From the NCBI RefSeq assembly GCF_006345805.1, contig NC_043001.1, forward strand, positions 83,638,001 to 83,702,000: DNA of 64,000 nt. The letters are read 5' to 3'. Positions 1,488-62,269 of the stretch are shown one piece after another. The first letter of the stretch is position 1, and each line of letters opens with the position of its first letter. Both the position numbers and the translations under genes were made by a program. Under the pieces are notes generated by a model. That model did not search any database, was not told the origin of the DNA, and saw only the letters and a program-made list of their open reading frames with translations. The stretch is from Octopus sinensis. Lineage: Eukaryota.

Positions 1488-1604
1488 ATATACATACAAA
1501 CACACACACACACATATATACATATACATACAAACGTACATAATTTATATATCAACTCACGTGTTCATTTTCAACTTACTACACACACACACACACACAC
1601 ACAC

Positions 1605-3701
1605 ATGGTAGTGTCGGCTATAGCCTAATCACCCGTATAGTTAATCAGGTGATACACAAAGGAGTCATACCCAATGACTGGTGTAGCAGCATAATAGTCA
1701 ACTGCTACAAAGGTAAAGGTGACGCCCTAGATACAAATAACTACAGAGGTATCAAGCTGTTGGATCAGGTGATGAAGGTTACGGAGAGGGTCATAGCCCA
1801 ACTAATTAGAGAGAGAGTTAGTTTAGATGAGATGCAGTTTGGGTTTGTGCCAGGGAAAAGTACCACTGATGCTATATTCCTGGTAAGGCAGCTGCAGGAG
1901 AATACCTAGCCAAAGATAAGCCCCTGTACCTGGCTTTTGTTGACATGGAGAAAGCCTTCGACAGGGTCCCCCGATCACTTATCTGGTGGTCAATGAGGAA
2001 ACTAGGGATAGATGAATGGTTAGTGAGAGCTGTGCGGGCCATGTATAGGGACGCTGCTAGTAAGGTGAGGGTTGGCAACGACAACAGTGAAGATTCCGGT
2101 AGAGGTAGGGGTCCACCAAGGCTCAGTCCTCAGCCCCTCCTATTATCATAGTCCTCCAGGCAATAACGGAGGATTCAAGACAGGATGCCCTTGGGAGCTC
2201 CTCTATGCTGATGACTTGCTCTAATTGCTGAGTCGCTATCAGAACTGGAGGAGAAGTTTCAGGTGTGGAAACAAGGATTAGAATTGAAGGGCCTTAGAGT
2301 CAATCTAGCTAAAACCAAAGTCGTAATCAGTAGGAAGGTAGACAAATCACAAACGCCTTCAGGTAGATGGCCCTGCTCGATCTGTAGAAAAGGTGTAGGT
2401 AGAAATTCTAGAAGATGTACCAAGTGTAAGCTATGGACACATAAGAGGTGCAGCAATGTCAAAGGAAGGCTAACTAGGAAGATGGTTTTTGTATGTGGCA
2501 GATGCTCAGGAACAATAAACACTGAACATGCTCTGAGACCAACTTCCGTCACTTTCCAGGGAGAAAAACTAGAAATAGTTGATAGTTTCCGTTACCTAGG
2601 TGACCAAGTCAGCAGCGGGGGCAGGTGTGCTGAAAGTGTAACTGCTAGAGTAAGAATAGCTTGGGCAAAGTTCAGAGAGCTCTTACCTCTGCTGGTGACA
2701 AAAGGCCTCTCGCACAGAGTAAAAGGCAGACTGTATGATGCGTATGTACGAACAGCCATGCTACATGGCAGTGAAACATGGGCCGTGACTGCTGAGGATA
2801 TGCGTAAGCTCGCAAGAAATGAAGCCAGTATGCCCCGATGGATGTGTAATGTCAGTACTCATACTCGGCAGAGTGTAAGTACCTTGAGAGAAAAGCTGGA
2901 CCTAAGAAGCATCAGTTGTGGTGTGCAAGAGAGACGTTTGCGCTGGTATGGTCATGTGGCGAGAATGGATGAAGATAGTTGTGTGAAAAAGTCCCACACC
3001 CTAGCGGTTGAGGGAACCTGCGGAAGAGGCAGACCCAGGAAAACCTGGGACGAGGTGGTGAAGCACGACCTTCGAACTTTAGGTCTCACTGAGGAAATGA
3101 CTAGAGACCGAGACCTCTGGAAGTGTGCTGTGCGCGAGAAGACCCGGCAGGACAAGTGAGTCCATAACCCGTGGCCTTCTACATGGGATGGAGCCAGCCT
3201 ACGTATGCATACCTTCCCTTCTTGGGACACAAAGCTCTACTTGTGAAGACCTGTTGAGGCAAGTGAGGATCAGAATCGAAATCAATCAATGGAAATTGCA
3301 GATGTGTTACCAGTGCCGGTGGCATGTAAGAGAACCATCCGTTTGCGACCGTTGCCAGCGCCGCCCTGACTGGCCTCGTGCCGGTGGCACGTAAAAAGCA
3401 CCATCCATTCGTGTCCGTTGCCAGCCTCGCCTGGCCCCCGTGCTGGTGGCACATAAAAAGCACCATCCGTTCGTGGCCATTTGCCAGCTCTGTCTGGCAC
3501 CTGTGCGGGTGGCACGTAAAAAGCACCCACTACACTCACGGAGTGGTTGGCATTAGGAAGGGCATCCAGCCGTAGAAACACTGCCAGATCTGACTGGGCC
3601 TGATGAAGCCTTCTGGCTTCACAGACCCCAGTTGAACCGTCCAACCCATGCTAGCATGGAAAACGGATGCTAAACGATGATGATGATGATGATGATGATG
3701 A
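1605..3701 (+). mobile_element. 5'-truncated RTE-clade LINE (frameshifted RT, 3'UTR, (GAT)n tail)
   Basis: Consecutive ORF pieces give RT motifs: KGKGDALDTNNYRGIKLL, QFGFVPGKSTTDAIF, DMEKAFDRV, GVHQGSVLSPLLF (~2109), YADD (2204-2215), FRYLG, LHGSETW, RRLRWYGHV and GRGRPRKTW. Stop at 3159. The 3'UTR has tandem hairpin units and a (GAT)n tail. Inserted in a (CA)n tract. Confidence 0.95.
1649..3159 (+). pseudogene. RTE ORF2 reverse transcriptase remnant with C4HC3 finger; several frameshifts
   Basis: ORFs 1649-1909, 1945-2151 and 2263-3159 are successive parts of one RT in different frames. Confidence 0.9.
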
Positions 3702-4939: not shown

Positions 4940-6707
4940 TTACCTTCCTGCCATACAAAACTAATCAAATTTTATCAGTAAACAACTAAATGTATAATAT
5001 AAACTTTTAATGAGTTGCAAATAATATTGATTTCAAATTCTGACACAAGGCCAGCAAATTTGAGGAGGGGTTAAGTTGTTTTCATTGACCCCCCCCCCAC
5101 AAAGGATGAACTTGAACTCAGAATGTGTAGATGGACAAAATACCACTAAGTATCTTGCCCAGCATGCTAACGAGTCTGTCAGCTTGCTGCCTTACAAATG
5201 AATAATATTAACATTTGCATATGTTTGATTAGGTTTAATTAGATGAGAAAAATTTAAAAAATAGGAAAATAAAAATTAAAATAAGAAATAAGTGGAAATT
5301 TTACCAGTGAGTGTGTTACATTATAAGGCACAAAAAGAAAATGACTCTCCCTAGGCACAACAGAATATGCTTCAACACACGAACTCATATGAAGAATCTT
5401 GCAAACCAAATCCAAAAACAAAACGAGATGAGAAAAATATATATAATTATTTCAATATATATGTAAGTATCAAGGTAAGATATATGGACTTTCTGGTTTA
5501 ATTAAATAAGGTGTATAAAAAAAAAAACAATTTCAATATTTATGCTACATGTTAAGTTATAGGAATTTTAATCCATAATTTCTATAGTCTCCAGCTTGCA
5601 TATCTACCACAAAGATATATATATAATGTAATAACAGTGCCTGCAAGACTGCTTTAAGATACACGGCATATTTTAAAAATGTGACTGTTCAAGTATCATA
5701 ATAGCATGAAACTATTAGTAGCCCTTTCTGTTGTGCATTTAATTTGATACATGCATGTATGTGCATTTGTATATTGTAGGTGCTTGGCATTGAGAAATTT
5801 TGGCAAAGGTTCACAAAATTGTTTTCTTTGTCTCCAAAATACCAATTTGACCATGGCACAGTTGCCCTAAAACTATTTTTTTCCTATTCCTGATCCCTCT
5901 ACCAGATGGATCAGAGTTAACTAGGGATCAGTAGAATACAAACAAAGACACACATACCCACAGGCACATACACTGTATGTATGTATGTGTGTATGTATGT
6001 ATGTGTGTGTGTATTACTGTTGCTTTCGATGAAAGACCTGCTGGATCAGAGCCGACCTGGGGTTAAACAACAACAACAACCAGCAACAGATTTATCTTAG
6101 CCAAAAAAGGAATCATCAACGTGGTCCCTCAATCGGTTGGAAATAGCAGCCAAATCATTAATGAAATGCCTTCGATACAAAGACCTGATGGACACTGCTG
6201 GAAAGCTTCTAAAAGACGAAGTGGTCACGTTTGGAACTCCACAAAAAAAAAGAAAAATTTAAAAAACGGGTAATTTCGCGAGAGACCACGAATGTGTAAA
6301 AATCAGACGAGTTATTTTCAATTTGGAAAATATTTCAGAACTTAAAATTCTGTTAACACCTACAATGTGACAGAGTGCGCACGTGTGCGTGTGTCTGTGT
6401 GTACACGCGCACGCGGATTGGCATTCCTAACGAATAGAGTCGGAAATTAACTAACGAGTCAAAAGCCGCAATTTTTTCGGATATGTATATTTTAAGCATC
6501 ATAGATTATGAATCTGGAAACTAATTCATTTTAAATGAAGTATATGTATGTGGTGGTGGTGTTGGGGGTGTTGGGGATACCTCAGCCTTCGCTTCTTTCA
6601 CGTAATTTTTCCGTTTTGAATTCTCGAGAATAAAAAAAAAAATTTTTTATAGATTTACATTAGGCATATATTTGAAGATTCATACTCTGATGTTTAAAGC
6701 ATAAATC

Positions 6708-6923
6708 GGTGCTACTTAAGAAGAGCGGTCCCGGTGCGCGCACTCGCGCAAGCTGGTCGATCCTTACTTTGTGTTTTTGTGTTTTATTTACTTTGATTTA
6801 AAAAATTATTTATTTTGTCTTTTATTTACTTTGCTAGGTAGTCGTTGTAGGATCGACTAGTCACGACTAGCTAGCGCGGATGCGCGAGTGCGCGCACCGG
6901 GACCACTCTTCTTAAGTAGTACC
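6708..6923. mobile_element. Merlin-like MITE
   Basis: ~43-bp TIRs (GGTGCTACTTAAGAAGAGCGGTCCCGGTGCGCGCACTCGCGCA) with GG...CC termini. Exact 8-bp TSD CATAAATC at 6700-6707 and 6924-6931. Confidence 0.8.
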
Positions 6924-7769
6924 CATAAATCTGTAAAACAATTTTGAAGAGTAAGTGAAAATTGAAAAATTAAAGAAAAGCAGAGATAGATCATCTACGA
7001 TGATTAAGATAGACACAACAAAAGAAATTACAGTTTTTCGCACGCTCTAATCAATAGGAACAGTGCGCGCGCGCGTGTGTGTGTGTGTGTGTGTGAGTGC
7101 GCACCGTGAGAGAAAGCGAAGGACAGGGGGGGGGGAAGCGGAGGAAGTTACAGTTGAGAACACTGATAAGCAAAACTGCGGCCAGCAAGATTTTCTGACT
7201 GGTAAGTCTAACGAAAATTTACCTTGAATTTTTTTAGTAGTGCGGACCGCCCGATGATGAACCAAGTCTCATGCGATTGATTGTTCACGCCTGGTTTAGA
7301 ACGAAGTTGAAAATGTTTTGCCAACAAACACAATGTCAAATCCGTTAAATACTGAAAGTGAAGGACTCCAGAGATATCCAGTCACACGCACAACACAAAC
7401 ACACATAAGCACACGCACGCACACACACCAGTTAGTCAGCACCACAGAAGGTAACTCTGTATACCTAAGTTATACCGTGTCGACGGTTCTATACAGGAAA
7501 ATCATTGTGTCCCAAGATTAGACGTCGTAAACAAAATGAAATAATAAATTTTACGGTAATCCTTCGGTATTGGTACACAGCATCATTCACCCGCACAACC
7601 TTTCCTGATTACATAAACAGGCTAGTCGGAAAATTGGGGGAATGACGCCGTCTCCTCATACCGACACTCTGCAGGCCAATACCGAAAGACCGCCAATTTT
7701 TGTGGATCAAAATAACTTTTCCTCCCTCCATTTCCCCCTTAGTATATCTAGTAATTTTATTAATAGTAG

Positions 7770-11927: not shown

Positions 11928-12559
11928 GCTCAGTTGAACAAATCAATGCCAGTACTTATTTCTTTAAAAGCCTAGTACTTTTGCTGAACCATTAAGCTAC
12001 AGGAACGTAAACAAACCAACACCACTTCTCAAATTGTGATTAGGACAAATACAAACACACACATACAATGGGTTTCCACACAGTTTCAGTCAAATTTCCT
12101 CACAAGGCATTTGTTTACCCTCGGCTATAATAGAAGGTATTTGTTCAAGGTGCCATGCACTGAAACTAAACTTGGGGTTGATGTAATTGACTTACCCCTA
12201 CCCCAAAATTGCTGGCTTTGTGCCAAAATTTGAAGTCAATATTTGTAGTTAAAATGGTTTAGATATTAGTACAGGCATGGCTGTATGGTAATAAGCTTGC
12301 TTCTCAACCACATGGTTCTGGGTTCTGCCCCACAGCACCTTGAGCAAGTGTCTTCTACTATAGCCTTGGGCCAGCCAAAGACTTGTGAGTGGATTTGGTA
12401 GACAGAAACTGAAAGAAGCCCATCATATATACATATATATATATACAGTGGTTGGACAAAATAATGGAAACACCTAGCATGATAGCATCACAATTTTGAA
12501 ATATCCATAAAACTGTCAAAAGCTTGTTTATTTTTATGTCTTTTTAATTTATTATTATC

Positions 12560-13620
12560 ACACATCCATCAGAGCATACTGGCTTCATTTCTTGCGAGCT
12601 TACGCATATTCTCAGCAGTCACGAAACATGGGCTGTGACTGCTGAGGATATGCGTAAGCTCGCAAGAAATGAAGCCAGTATGCTCCAATGGATGTGTAAT
12701 GTCAGTATTCATACTCGACAGAGTGTAAGTACCTTGAGAGAAAAGCTGGACCTAAGAAGCATAAGATGTGGTGTGCAAGAGAGACGTTTGCGATGGTATG
12801 GACATGTGACGAGAATGGATGAAGATAGTTGTGTGAAAAAGTGCCACACCCTAGCGGTTGAGGGAACCTGTGGAAGAGGCAGACCCAGGAAAACCTGGGA
12901 CGAGGTGGTGAAGCACGACCTTCGAACTTTAGGTCTCACTGAGGAAATGACTAGAGACCGAGACCTCTGGAAGTGTGCTGTGCGTGAGAAGACCCGGCGG
13001 GACAAGTGAGACCATAACCAGTGGCCTTCTACATGGGATGTAGCCAGCCCACTTGTGCATACCTTCCCTTCTTGGGACACAAAACTCTACTTGTGAAGAC
13101 CTGTTGAGGCAAGTGAGAATCAGAATCAAATCAGAATCGAAATCGATCAATGGAAATTGCAGCTGAGTTGCCAGTGCCGGTGGCACGTAAGAGAACCATC
13201 TGAACGTGGCCGTTGCCAGCACCGCCCTGACTGGCCTCATGCCAGTGGCACGTAAAAAGCACCATCCATTTGTGGCCGTTGCCAGCGCCGCCCCGACTGG
13301 CCTTGTGCTGGTGGCATGTAAAAAGCACCAACCGTTTGTGGCCATTGCCAGCCTCGCCTGGCCCCCGTGCCAGTGGCACATAAAAAGCACCATCCGATCG
13401 TGGCTGTTTGCCAGACTTGTCTGGCACCTATGCCGGTGGCACGTAAAAAGCACCCACTACACTCATGGAGTGGTTGGCGTTAGGAAGGGCGTCCAGCCGT
13501 AGAAACATTGCCAGATCAAACTGGGCCTGGTGCAGCCTTCTGGCTTCCCAGACCCCAGTTGAACCGTCCAACCCATGTTAGCATGGAAAGTGGACGCTAA
13601 ACGATGATGATGATGATGAT
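12560..13620 (+). mobile_element. 5'-truncated RTE LINE with 5' inverted duplication
   Basis: ORF 12635-13009 is nearly identical to the C-terminus of 2263-3159. 12560-12621 is the reverse complement of ~12635-12696. (GAT)n tail. Confidence 0.92.
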
Positions 13621-14196: not shown

Positions 14197-15221
14197 TGAC
14201 AGATCTATTGGACTTTCAAAGAGGTTAAATTGTTGGTTCTTGTATGGCAGGTGCTAACGTAACAAAAACAGCTGAAATGTTTGGTGCATCAAGAAGTACT
14301 GACTGGAAAGTAATGACAACCTTTGAGAAAGAGAGAAAAACTTCCAGAAGAAAACCAAACTTTCAGATAGGGACTGTCAGACACTTAAGCAGACTGTTAG
14401 AAAGGATCACAAAAGTAAAGCTCCCAAAATTACTGCAGAGCTTAATGACCACCTCGAGAACCCTGTTTCCATAAAAACTGTTCACCAGGAGCTGCACACA
14501 GACGGATTTCATGGGAGGGCTGCAATCAGAAAACCACTACTTTCAAAAGGGAAGGTATGCACATTGTAAAGCGTTTAGAGTGGAGTAAAAACCTACAGAA
14601 TTGGTCCCTAGAGCAGTGGAAGAATGCTATTTTCTTAGATGAGTCATCCTTTACCTTATTACTGACCACTGGCCGAGCATATATGTAAGACAGCCAAAAG
14701 AAGCATTTGACCCAGACTGCCTTCTTCCAACTGTTAAACATGGAGTAGGATCTGTGATGATTTGGGTGGGGGGGGGTATATCTTGGAAATCCACCGACCC
14801 AATGGTTTCCCTTCATGGAAGAATTAATAGTCAAGACTGTTTGAGCATTTTATCTGATCAAATTCATCCTATGGTTGCAGAACTGTTTCCAGAGGGAAAC
14901 GCAATCTTTCAGGATGATAATGCACCAATTCACACAGCTAAAGCTGTTACTGAATCGCACGAAGAACATTCTCATGAAATTGAAAATCTTATCTGGTCAC
15001 CACAGTCCCCAGATCCCAATATTATTGAATATTTATGGTGCATTTTAGAAAAACAAGTAAGGAGTCGATATCCTCCACCATCATCACTACAAGAGCTGGA
15101 AACTATTTCAGCTGAAGAACGAACAAAAATTCCTTTGGAAACAATTCAAACTTTGTATGAGTCCATACCTCGTAGAATTCAAGCTGTAATTACTGCCAAA
15201 GGTGGTCCTACTCCATATTAA
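14197..15221 (+). pseudogene. Tc1-like transposase pseudogene (DD36E spacing)
   Basis: MTDLLDFQRG*IVG..AGANVTKTA (HTH start), FLDES (~14632), VMIW.G, FQDDNAPIH, WSPQSPDPNIIE and AVITAKGGPTPY*. Contains stops and frameshifts. Confidence 0.9.
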
Positions 15222-15365
15222 AATAAATTTGTTTGAAATTTTAAGGTGTTTCCATTATTTTGTCCAACCCCTGTATATATATACGGTGACCAGTGAATAG
15301 ATTTCACTGTAAATATATATATTTGCAAAGGCTTGGCAGGTATCTCAACTAGCAGGACTTACTAC

Positions 15366-15411
15366 TCTGGACTGATGACGGGCAAGACCCAGAAATATGC
15401 ATGTCTTCAGG
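15366..15411 (+). ncRNA. Type I hammerhead ribozyme motif with long extended stem I (15318-15459)
   Basis: TCTGGA-CTGATGA-cGGG caaga CCCa-GAAA-TATGCATG-TC^TTCAGG. Stem I is 6 bp with 2 GU pairs, helix III is near-palindromic, and the site is GUC. There is a C.A mismatch at the base of stem II. Confidence 0.75.
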
Positions 15412-15578
15412 TTGCTAGTCCTAGCTGGTGGGAGTGCTTGCCTCCCCTTCGCAAATATAAGGACACAGGAAATGTGTCAAAGCCGACAGGAAGCATCGAT
15501 GCTTCCTAGGGCTAAATAGCGGTGGTGTAATTCCCTTTATGGGACTGTCACATTATGTCGATAGTATACAACCACTCA

Positions 15579-15629
<51 letters not shown>

Positions 15630-24371: not shown

Positions 24372-24409
<38 letters not shown>

Positions 24410-24413
<4 letters not shown>

Positions 24414-24580
24414 AGAGTTTAGGAAAAAAAGACGAAGACAGGTAGTGTACAAAACAAACAGATGTATTAGTATAACGCTCAGGATAGAAAAAGTCTTTTA
24501 CGTTTCGAGCCTACGCTCTTCTACAGAAAGGGACACAGAAAAAACAAAGAGAGAAAAAAATGTGTGTAGTGGCTAACGAT
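24410..24580 (-). mobile_element. Penelope-like terminal fragment with degenerate minimal HHR (24495-24530)
   Basis: Minus strand CTTT-CTGTAGA-A-GAGC gtag GCTC-GAAA-CGTA^AAAG. Homologous to 36750-36900 (+). Confidence 0.55.
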
Positions 24581-24599
24581 ATATATATATCGTGACGTA

Positions 24600-24830
24600 T
24601 ATTTGCCATTTCAATATGGCTACCCCTAAGGGTGGATGCTACTGTAGTTTTTAGCCCCAGGAGGACACACTCCTCCAGCTGGCCATAGACACACTTTCTG
24701 TGCCCTGTCAGTATTTGCAAAGGGAAGTCATCCTTCCCGTCTTCAACTTATGATACACACGGACTCGAGTTTCGAGGTATTGACCTCTCGTCAGCGTGTG
24801 ACAATCATAGTTGTCGGCGAGAATTAGATT
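24600..24830 (-). mobile_element. Non-coding HHR-bearing element (retrozyme/Penelope-LTR-like)
   Basis: HHR plus downstream hairpins homologous to 15420-15550 and 62050-62220. Bounded by TA-rich microsatellites. Confidence 0.7.
24756..24800 (-). ncRNA. Canonical type I hammerhead ribozyme
   Basis: Minus strand CACACG-CTGACGA-GAGG tcaata CCTC-GAAA-CTCGAG-TC^CGTGTG. Perfect 6-bp stem I and 4-bp stem II, full core, and a GUC site (cut between 24762 and 24761). Stem I extends through a small internal loop (CAACTATGAT/ATCATAAGTTG). Confidence 0.9.
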
Positions 24831-24832
24831 TC

Positions 24833-24866
<34 letters not shown>

Positions 24867-32413: not shown

Positions 32414-32836
32414 CTACGTATATTTCCTTTTTAGTACTTGGGATGTTTCATTTATGAGGACGTACTCCTGTATTTGTCTGAGGGTTGGGTCCTTTGGATG
32501 CTTAGATAAAACGCGGATGTCAAGTTGACCCAGGTTACCTCCATGTTGGTCCTTGGCGTATTGGTAGAGTATGGTGGACTGTTTTTCGTTGTCATATTCT
32601 CTTAAATGTTCATTTAGTCTTTCCACAATGCTCCTAGATGTCTCTCCTATGTGTGTCATGTTCATGTCTTTATAAGCACCTTCTATGCATCTTATGTTGT
32701 ATACTACATTACTTGTTCTACAGTTAATGCCAGGGCTAATCCTACATACCATGCAGTTATCATTGATGCATATGGTATTCTCAAAGGGGTGCGTCCTACA
32801 TAGTTGTGATCTGATGGATTTCCCTGGCTTATGCAT
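32414..32836 (-). pseudogene. Penelope-like element GIY-YIG endonuclease fragment
   Basis: C..NCMVC...NCRTSNVVYNIRC....HIGETSRSIVERLNEH...R.IQE..LI matches the PLE pattern VVY..C..YIGET.R.L..R..EH with an upstream Cys linker. Confidence 0.85.
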
Positions 32837-32971
32837 CTGAACGAAACGTTAGTCGAGTATATGGTGTTGTTACTCAGGCACTTAGTTATGAGTCCACCGT
32901 ATCCAATAGCGGAAACAGCTGTAAGCTAATAAGGTTCATAAGATAATTGTTTATTCCTTTGTCATCTACTA

Positions 32972-36731: not shown

Positions 36732-36777
36732 CATACATACATACATGTATTTTCTCTCCCTATTTATTTCTATGTTC

Positions 36778-36813
36778 CTTTCTGCTGAAGAGCGTAGGCT
36801 CGAAACGTAAAAA
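36778..36813 (+). ncRNA. Degenerate minimal HHR-like motif in a Penelope-like terminal fragment
   Basis: CTTT-CTGCTGA-A-GAGC gtag GCTC-GAAA-CGTA^AAAG. The core deviates from CUGANGA at one position. Confidence 0.45.
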
Positions 36814-36902
36814 GACTTTTTCGCTTCCCGAGCGTTAAACTAATACATCTGTTCGTTGTTTACACACACGTCGTCTTTTTTTTTGTAAATTCTCACTATA
36901 TA

Positions 36903-61600: not shown

Positions 61601-61764
61601 ACTTAAAAAAAATATATAAAAACTACTACTCGGCTATTGAAAAGAACACGATCGTTAAATAACTAATCTCTCTGTTGAAAAAAGTAATTATACAATTAAT
61701 ATATATTTCCTGATTGTGTGGTCATCAGAGCTTACATAAAGATGCAAAACAATGATAATTTTAT

Positions 61765-62220
61765 AATAAATCTCTGAACGAGATATAAACAGTAACCGCT
61801 CGACAACGTAAGGTGTACTAGCCATCTGAATGTGGCTAGCCACTGGGGGTGGGGTGTTACTGATGCTTTTAGCCCCAGGCGATCAACGTCACCAGATGGA
61901 CTTTAGACACTATCTCAGTGCCCTTGTGTTATTTGCAAAGGGAGGTCATCCTCCCTCGAAGACCTAAGTACTACATACGGACTATAGTTTCAAGGTAATT
62001 GCCTCTCGTCAACGCATGGTGAGAGGCAATTACCTTGAAACTATAGTCCGTATGTAGTACTTAGTTCTTCGAGGGAGGATGACCTCCCTTTGCAAATAAC
62101 ACAAGGGCACTGAGATAGTGTCTAAAGTCCATCTGGTGACGTTGATCGCCTGGGGCTAAAAGCATCAGTAACACCCCACCCCCAGTGGCTAGCCACATTC
62201 AGATGGCTAGTACACCTTAC
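61765..62220 (-). mobile_element. HHR-bearing non-coding element as a 200-bp near-perfect inverted repeat with candidate TSD
   Basis: Arms 61808-62007 and 62021-62220 with 1 mismatch seen and a 13-nt spacer. Flanking direct repeat (AC)AATGATAATTTTAT at 61749-61764 and 62219-62234. Homologous to 24600-24830. Confidence 0.8.
61974..62018 (-). ncRNA. Type I hammerhead motif, UUGACGA core variant
   Basis: CATGCG-TTGACGA-GAGG caatta CCTT-GAAA-CTATAG-TC^CGTATG. Confidence 0.75.
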
Positions 62221-62269
62221 AATGATAATTTTATTTTCTCCAATCATTCGCAAACAAGGAATGAATAGG

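Follow-up and report, generated by a model that had tools for sequence, protein, structure and literature searches.

The closest described counterparts of the octopus element are the metazoan non-LTR retrozymes, known as ~350-390-nt repeats in Mytilus and 330/350-nt repeats in the axolotl (Cervera & de la Peña 2020, PMC7229834). As that report presents them, they share with the octopus element a type I hammerhead ribozyme (HHR) in each ~350-nt unit, copies both in tandem and alone, a GC content below 50% and the lack of ORFs and LTRs, together with duplications longer than 4 bp, a short palindromic helix III, a highly self-paired predicted circle and Penelope-like elements (PLEs) in the genome. 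The likeness is one of architecture and size, not of compared sequences, and while circles and cleavage were shown for mussel and axolotl, the octopus families are known here from sequence alone. Vertebrate non-LTR retrozymes (Li, Clavereau, Pollet, bioRxiv 10.64898/2026.07.22.740005; a sample of 31 vertebrates, 3 insects and 1 anthozoan) are likewise outlined as tandem type I HHR units riding on PLEs, with a mixture of monomers, dimers and multimers; those families were tied to pLTRs by homology, whereas no pLTR homologue was found here and the link to PLEs comes from insertion anatomy. The retrozyme class is already known, its PLE link having been proposed in 2014 and 2020 and backed by homology in the 2026 preprint. 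A search of main texts, among them a paper on Octopus repeats, gave no report of retrozymes in cephalopods; these families may already be listed in supplementary material to PMC7229834 or to the 2026 preprint.

Two further systems bear on the comparison. The EN+ PLEs PAc Poseidon (PMC11167929), Adineta Penelope (PMC3846280) and Neptune/Naiad (PMC8557442) are described with two internal reverse-transcription starts that leave a tail, inverted 5' copies, partial tandems, A/T-rich or (TA)n targets and an HHR in the repeat, all of which recur in the octopus families; unlike those elements, the octopus unit has no RT/EN ORF, and its tail is ~43-50 nt long versus 30-40 nt. An RT + GIY-YIG ORF between pLTRs, the feature of an autonomous EN+ PLE, was not found in it. 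Plant LTR retrozymes (PMC4918200) are also non-autonomous HHR retroelements with a circular RNA, which for the octopus element is proposed; they are characterized by a type III HHR, LTRs, PBS/PPT, 4-bp duplications and a Gypsy partner, while the octopus element has a type I HHR, a tandem layout and 12-16-bp duplications. Neither a type III HHR nor LTRs nor a 4-bp duplication was detected in it, and it belongs neither with the autonomous PLEs nor with the plant LTR retrozymes.

We analyzed a window of 64 kb (the whole 64,000-nt stretch from Octopus sinensis), for which a preliminary description had proposed a single ~250-nt structured family with an intact type I HHR and two divergent homologues. 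A descriptor scan, written without use of the earlier coordinates, returned exactly three type I HHRs, 24756-24800 (-), 15366-15411 (+) and 61974-62018 (-), in the very places proposed before, while 100 shuffles (block-wise, dinucleotide) averaged 0.04 matches, with a maximum of 1. The stem I arms, GUC site and helix III words also agreed for all three, and the predicted cuts fall after 24762 (-), 15405 (+) and 61980 (-), the first being the cut previously placed at 24762/24761. Intactness could be upheld for the 24.7k motif, the only one of the window's three with a fully canonical core, and not for those at 15.4k and 62k, whose cores deviate. The HHR at 24756-24800 (-) has a 6-bp stem I, a 4-5-bp stem II and a helix III consisting of A-U and C-G pairs closed by a palindromic loop. 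In a Rfam scan of the window, the covariance-model check suggested earlier, none of the 99 matches at E<=1 was to a Hammerhead family, so the HHR call rests on the descriptor; the Rfam matches to miRNAs and snoRNAs were discarded, all being under their gathering scores and the alignments shown being microsatellites.

The three motifs represent three families (family 1 at 24.7k, family 2 at 15.4k, family 3 at 62k). In family 3, with 189 pattern matches, U3 stands opposite G8 (U3 in 100/100 and G8 in 99/100 of the matches listed), a core that is presumably weaker than the canonical pair; nothing usable was found in the literature on the effect of C3U. In the family-2 HHR, C stands opposite A where stem II starts and G10.1-C11.1 is absent; its helix III in the window, TATGCATG, is a less common variant of the palindrome CATGCATG (2 vs 14 matches). 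At core positions 3-8, families 1 and 2 have C-G, family 3 has U·G and a further family, family 5, has U-A, this last covariation being known from PLE HHRs (PMC4209133). Dimeric HHRs that pair through a palindromic helix III have been described in the same paper; for the family-1 HHR the predicted co-fold of such a dimer reaches -38.3 kcal/mol vs -17.5 kcal/mol for a single copy.

The repeating unit of family 1 is 352 nt long, not ~250 nt. The 244-bp window copy, 24589-24832 (-), comprises unit positions 282-352 followed by 1-173, counted from the HHR cut, and lies between AT-rich microsatellites, with an (AT)n target tract adjoining its 3' end (24579-24588) and a (TA)n/(CATA)n tract adjoining its 5' end (24833-24866); it is therefore a 5'-truncated copy, with two substitutions relative to the reference unit of locus L013. 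That locus holds four head-to-tail HHRs at 352-bp spacing, one example of the ~352-bp arrays that the suggested search for tandem copies brought to light. The best 40 of 2015 genomic candidates for 24590-24830 are 98-100% identical, and the exact 45-nt HHR occurs 587 times genome-wide (reversed control, 0). Among 100 exact matches listed, 41 have a same-strand neighbor at 340-360 bp, 24 of 27 same-strand neighbor spacings are 344-356 bp, 12 of 14 opposite-strand neighbors are arranged head-to-head, and the matches form 59 clusters, 35 of them single, spread along two chromosomes. A systematic sample of 400 kb (40 x 10 kb) of the 2.72-Gb genome contained one fragment of the superfamily, which points to a total of thousands of copies, with a wide error, and rules out a total near 100,000; at one fragment per 400 kb, the three copies in the 64-kb window, itself microsatellite- and repeat-rich, are above average.

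As had been stated, coding capacity is lacking: no ORF of at least 120 aa overlaps 24589-24832. With a GC content of 43%, a type I HHR in each unit, a unit length in the range of ~150-450 bp, loci with two or more HHR units in succession and PLEs in the same genome, the element displays all the sequence-level features of the metazoan class, and its assignment as a non-LTR retrozyme appears well supported. More than half of the unit's words are present in 20 sequencing runs under eight organism codes, none of them on record as RNA. Contigs from four of these runs, all under one code and guessed by us to be RNA, cover parts of the unit, a different repeat in the flank being about equally deep; strand, ends and circles are not readable from contigs.

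The three window copies do not form one family, as had been assumed, but three, each with near-identical copies elsewhere and with units only 49-64% identical in pairwise comparison. Family 2, represented by a 5'-truncated copy at 15282-15577 (+) containing the HHR 15366-15411, has a 353-nt unit and is older, its best copies being 90-96% identical; family 3 has a tandem period of 344-355 nt and copies 98-100% identical. Family 5 and a subfamily of family 1 were met in the flanks of retrieved loci; family-5 copies at L156:5540-5900 (-) and L064:1200-1495 (+) have a U3-A8 core and a rod of different sequence that still pairs, as judged from sequence and per-sequence folds.

The window stretch folds better than most shuffles (z -3.31; 1/200 as good), the full 352-nt unit more clearly so (z -6.47; 0/100), and the predictions for six stretches folded individually have z values from -3.95 to -9.17. 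The predicted fold is common to all families: a long rod with internal loops extends stem I, followed by hairpins P1 and P2 and by a multibranch domain that includes the first 3' end. One strand of the rod comes from upstream of the HHR and the other from downstream of the cut, and their predicted pairing would place the two cut ends next to each other. In the window copy, 24801-24832 (-) would be a remnant of the 5' strand of the rod, whose outer part was lost to truncation, and 24710-24755 (-) the 3' strand, which in the full unit would pair upstream of the HHR. Hairpin P1 (24687-24705, -) was predicted independently in the same columns for 5/5 family representatives, the interrupted hairpin P2 (24652-24685, -) shows changes on both sides in 5/6 pairs of its inner helix, and a small predicted hairpin (helix 7; 24605-24620, -) precedes the first 3'-end register. 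In a structure-blind MAFFT alignment of 11 sequences, 12/37 named pairs were changed on both sides, a value reached by 0/500 shuffles, a count that comes from only four or five lineages and from a structure drawn from the same sequences and is less strong than it seems; the number of further pair types did not exceed that of shuffles (438/500). RNAalifold failed to recover stem I and the rod from this alignment, in which the region around helix III is misaligned, and per-sequence folds were used instead. The compensatory base changes between families agree with the earlier remark that the sequences diverge while pairing is kept.

Other HHR-like motifs occur in the window and at the retrieved loci. 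A common repeat directly downstream of the family-1 copy, 24406-24580 (-), found again at 36738-36901 (+), contains a minimal-HHR-like motif in which U replaces the core A6, position 7 varies freely, a bulged A precedes stem II and helix III has two bases; motifs of this type gave 3 strict pattern matches in the 400-kb sample. Another repeat holds a minimal HHR (cut site 50857, -) whose core is canonical and whose helix III has two bases, and an HHR-like motif with a non-palindromic helix III (cut site 37463, -) is probably degenerate. A different HHR family, with a ~50-nt stem II and a palindromic helix III, was seen at L013 (cut 284, -), L152 (cut 7544, -), L193 (cut 9348, +), L023 and L159, adjoining (AT)n in L013 and L152; L148 and L159 (~5850-7000) hold two more long-stem-II types, one of which forms an inverted pair, where a region next to a PLE is duplicated. 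Elsewhere in the window, the sequence just upstream of the family-2 copy (14643-15221, +) is presumably a Tc1/mariner-like transposase fragment, and 1544-3159 and 12548-13009 (+) we take to be RTE-like LINE reverse-transcriptase fragments.

The insertions of these families have a characteristic anatomy. In a de-duplicated set of 66 family-1 arms from 60 loci, the 5' ends are scattered, with variable truncation, and the 3' ends fall in two registers, with 39 arms ending at unit 168-175, 20 at 214-223 and 7 elsewhere. There are thus two fixed 3' ends, a 'short' one at unit 170-173 and a 'long' one at 216-220, ~46 nt apart; identical ends were found at the loci of a second genomic query that excluded both of them. 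Ten A/T bases follow 55/66 family-1 arms. The window copy stops at the short end (24589-24592, -), which we infer to be the first internal reverse-transcription start.

Head-to-head insertions combine the two ends in a nearly strict manner. Short+long pairs make up 17/20 cases in family 1, 10/11 in family 3 and 4/8 in family 2; where both ends are classifiable the figures are 17/17, 10/10 and 4/5, or 31/32 in total, a count that leaves out cases with an end outside both registers (3/20 in family 1, 1/11 in family 3, 3/8 in family 2). The one short+short case is in family 2, and no long+long insertion was found among the cases examined in families 1, 2 and 3. Two of the family-1 cases left out reach 216 and 219 across small deletions. 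In L015 (family 1) and L058 (family 3) exceptional head-to-head ends lie at unit 277-281, perhaps a third start site. The family-3 insertion in the window illustrates the arrangement: an arm with the HHR 61974-62018 and a long 3' end at unit 217 (61763-62020, -) meets an inverted arm of 200 nt, 100% complementary, with a short 3' end at unit 172 (62021-62220, +) and only the 3' half of the HHR, the whole being bounded by 16-nt target-site duplications at 61749-61764 (+) and 62219-62234 (+).

Flanking words of at least 9 nt are shared at 15/23 family-3 insertions, 14 of them of 12-16 nt, vs 20/506 control pairs, and flanking duplications were found at 10/25 family-2 insertions; those of family 1 are not resolvable because the targets are (AT)n. 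Family 3 targets A/T-rich unique DNA. In 5/25 family-2 copies (window 15578-15615, L032, L034, L042, L044) a (CT)n run precedes the (AT)n, perhaps because a short template word was copied several times over as reverse transcription began. At L013:1140-1160, TATATAT replaces unit letters 171-177 in one internal array unit, as if target sequence had been left at the priming site or a second insertion had followed the first.

This anatomy agrees with what is described for PLEs. Inverted 5' copies and a tail at one end are reported PLE marks (PMC8557442, PMC3846280), and in vitro a purified PLE was seen to nick A/T-rich DNA on both strands, to extend both and to start reverse transcription at two internal RNA sites whose spacing equals the genomic 30-40-nt 'tail' (PMC11167929). 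All features of PLE-type mobilization were found in the octopus families, namely two internal reverse-transcription starts with a tail, inverted 5' copies, 5' truncation and an A/T-rich target. Given this close match, PLE enzymes are the likely mobilizers, and insertion of the unit by such enzymes acting in trans is, on the anatomy of the junctions, highly probable. In the in vitro reactions of PAc the start site was equal on both strands (PMC11167929), whereas octopus insertions pair a short with a long end; this short+long rule, the two 3' registers and the (AT)n targeting are octopus features that the Results and Discussion of PMC7229834 do not describe.

Candidate partners exist in the same genome, where intact RT + GIY-YIG ORFs of 775-781 aa were found, the copies of one family being 98-99% identical. 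Two PLE families have minimal HHRs in their 3' UTRs, and both of the PLE 3' ends examined stop in (AT)n. Young PLEs at L146:674-4374, L149, L151 and L152 have two overlapping ORFs, the first of up to 479 aa stop-to-stop and the second the 775-781-aa RT + GIY-YIG ORF; published descriptions of canonical EN+ PLEs give a single ORF. The 3' UTR of L146 has a degenerate U3-A8 HHR, intact in the L150/L151 subfamily, and repeated words that we take to be CCAAT- and CRE-like. In the window, 32414-32848 (-) is a GIY-YIG fragment of an old PLE-like family (6271 candidates); it has no Pfam match itself, and a 78%-identical relative passes PF01541.

Apparent junctions between PLEs and retrozyme copies were inspected individually. 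The single tblastn match among 110 loci, at L045, was rejected: the PLE fragment there is broken, lies ~80 nt away from the 5' end and shares no duplication with the copy. At L021 a PLE 3' end with HHR lies between retrozyme arms, and we did not accept it as proof of co-packaging, as the flank is also duplicated in inverted order (L021:200-2030; PLE 3' ends, family-1 arms and ~190 bp of flank). L152 and L084, considered as chimeras, proved to be separate retrozyme insertions near PLEs, and at L152, L156 and L084 such separate insertions are the only unit-like sequence that nhmmer (31 GIY-YIG loci) or blastn (20 loci) met at the sampled PLE loci, a minority of those in the genome. No pLTR in this sample shares sequence with the unit, a point against the main reading.

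Two alternatives would dispense with a retrozyme passenger altogether. If the copies were solo or tandem pseudo-LTRs shed by an unsampled coding PLE with an identical pLTR, the case that the preliminary description had named as contradicting it, their anatomy would equal that of PLE ends, as it does, and there is precedent in Xenopus, where 24/57 retrozyme families are reported to match known repeats and 21/22 of the matches are PLEs (bioRxiv 10.64898/2026.07.22.740005). The sampling leaves some room for such an element, with 39 family-1 insertions examined of several hundred and 150 of 5029 GIY-YIG candidates scored. Against this, tblastn with five PLE proteins found no PLE coding sequence joined to a retrozyme copy in 110 loci, the only match being the one rejected above; no same-strand HHR pair lies 2-7 kb apart outside arrays among the 100 exact matches listed; and copies that are long enough always run on into a closed 352-nt unit. 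The sampled loci thus held no sign of solo pLTRs of a coding PLE, and we consider this origin improbable, although an ancestral pLTR origin would still be compatible with our main reading. Spread at the DNA level as a minisatellite, through unequal crossover, extrachromosomal DNA circles or a Helitron-like rolling circle with the HHR as a passive relic, has in its favor that unequal crossover too makes arrays of uniform units; yet the 3' ends are fixed and strand-polar, the extent of 5' truncation varies, head-to-head inversions have a single tail and the duplications measure 12-16 bp, all of which point to target-primed reverse transcription, and 35/59 clusters among the matches listed are single HHRs dispersed along two chromosomes. 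Such a spread is already largely refuted and most improbable. With tandem ~352-nt units, no joined PLE coding sequence in the 110 loci and compensatory changes between families, the earlier proposal of a non-autonomous HHR retroelement family with a conserved predicted structure stands.

Which RNA is copied is a separate matter. Across 38 family-1 loci, discordance at polymorphic sites was 8/517 within insertions vs 7093/22421 between them. Among private variants, 8 were present in every covering pass (6 of these in both arms), 7 in some passes and 58 in one, so that haplotypes are not completely uniform; those in all passes of both arms come from L116, L125, L030 and L024. In the loci examined, copies continue past the HHR cut to a length of as much as ~4.8 units, and the cut is crossed by 32/40 head-to-head arms, a share inflated by arm queries that mostly span or lie upstream of the cut, with a stop within 10 nt in 2/40. 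A pile-up of 5' ends at the cut, expected of a cleaved linear template, was not seen (2/40, 1/22, 0/16). As copying crosses the cut site with few stops there, a cleaved linear monomer is not the usual template. A circular RNA, the model already proposed in PMC4209133 and PMC7229834, seems to us the probable template, since it accounts simply for haplotypes and crossing and regenerates arrays that truncation would shorten.

The same PLE passenger could instead be copied from a linear multimer that a tandem array yields on transcription and that stays uncleaved, or from a linear RNA re-primed by template jumps, the HHR being dispensable for insertion or acting elsewhere. Crossing of the cut site is equally expected in that case, and a uniform source array would equally yield uniform daughters, which weakens the haplotype evidence for a circle; a few arrays, such as L106 (2/5 passes) and L003, carry variants in some units only. 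In vitro, HHR mutants of a PLE inserted as well as the wild type and unprocessed RNA was the main substrate (PMC11167929), and 8/9 Xenopus retrozyme dimers are reported not to cleave. Family 2 lacks G10.1-C11.1. Family 3 spread recently, at 98-100% identity, with a U3·G8 core, which suggests that strong HHR cleavage may be dispensable for spread. Truncation, though, should shorten linear-templated arrays in each generation, yet 41/100 of the HHRs listed lie in tandems; in the four loci named above, private variants are present in all passes of the two arms; and the HHR, with a rod joining the cut ends, is kept in four families, of which the three measured are 49-64% identical. Overall we regard an uncleaved multimer as the less likely template.

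Taken together, the window copy is best read as a 5'-truncated member of a young 352-nt non-LTR retrozyme, whose RNA was likely cut, circularized and inserted into A/T-rich DNA by a Penelope-type enzyme in trans, a reading that we hold with reasonable though not high confidence. In the circular-template scheme, arrays of 352-nt units would be transcribed and cleaved to unit length by the HHR, probably as a dimer through the palindromic helix III; the rod of the predicted fold would pair both sides of the cut, and a host ligase would join the ends. A GIY-YIG endonuclease would nick both target strands, reverse transcription would be primed internally at two fixed sites, one per strand, and the circular RNA would be copied in rolling-circle fashion. 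As a tentative extension, which we judge possible without holding it the likelier case, an asymmetric PLE dimer might carry out rolling-circle target-primed reverse transcription of one circular 352-nt RNA onto both strands, its subunits starting at 170-173 and 216-220, with the RNA recognized by its fold alone, without sequence shared with any PLE, and with one family, and not its sister, targeting (AT)n by wobble pairing. With two G·T wobbles, the word AUGUGU at unit 172-177 could pair with the nicked (AT)n strand, which would set the first start; the start site of the PLE examined in vitro had no homology to the target (PMC11167929). A literature search on rolling-circle target-primed copying in PLEs listed a single review.

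The families described here are very young, and their junctions can be read base by base. They present a retrozyme that bears the two-start 'tail' signature of PLEs, a near-strict pairing of short and long arms and one haplotype per insertion. The asymmetric rolling-circle reading, if true, would explain the origin of the partial tandems, tails and inverted ends of PLEs with a 352-nt substrate. Intact PLE ORFs are present in the same genome, which makes the circle model directly testable in the published in vitro TPRT assay, and the young copies provide a clear record of how retrozymes and PLEs insert.
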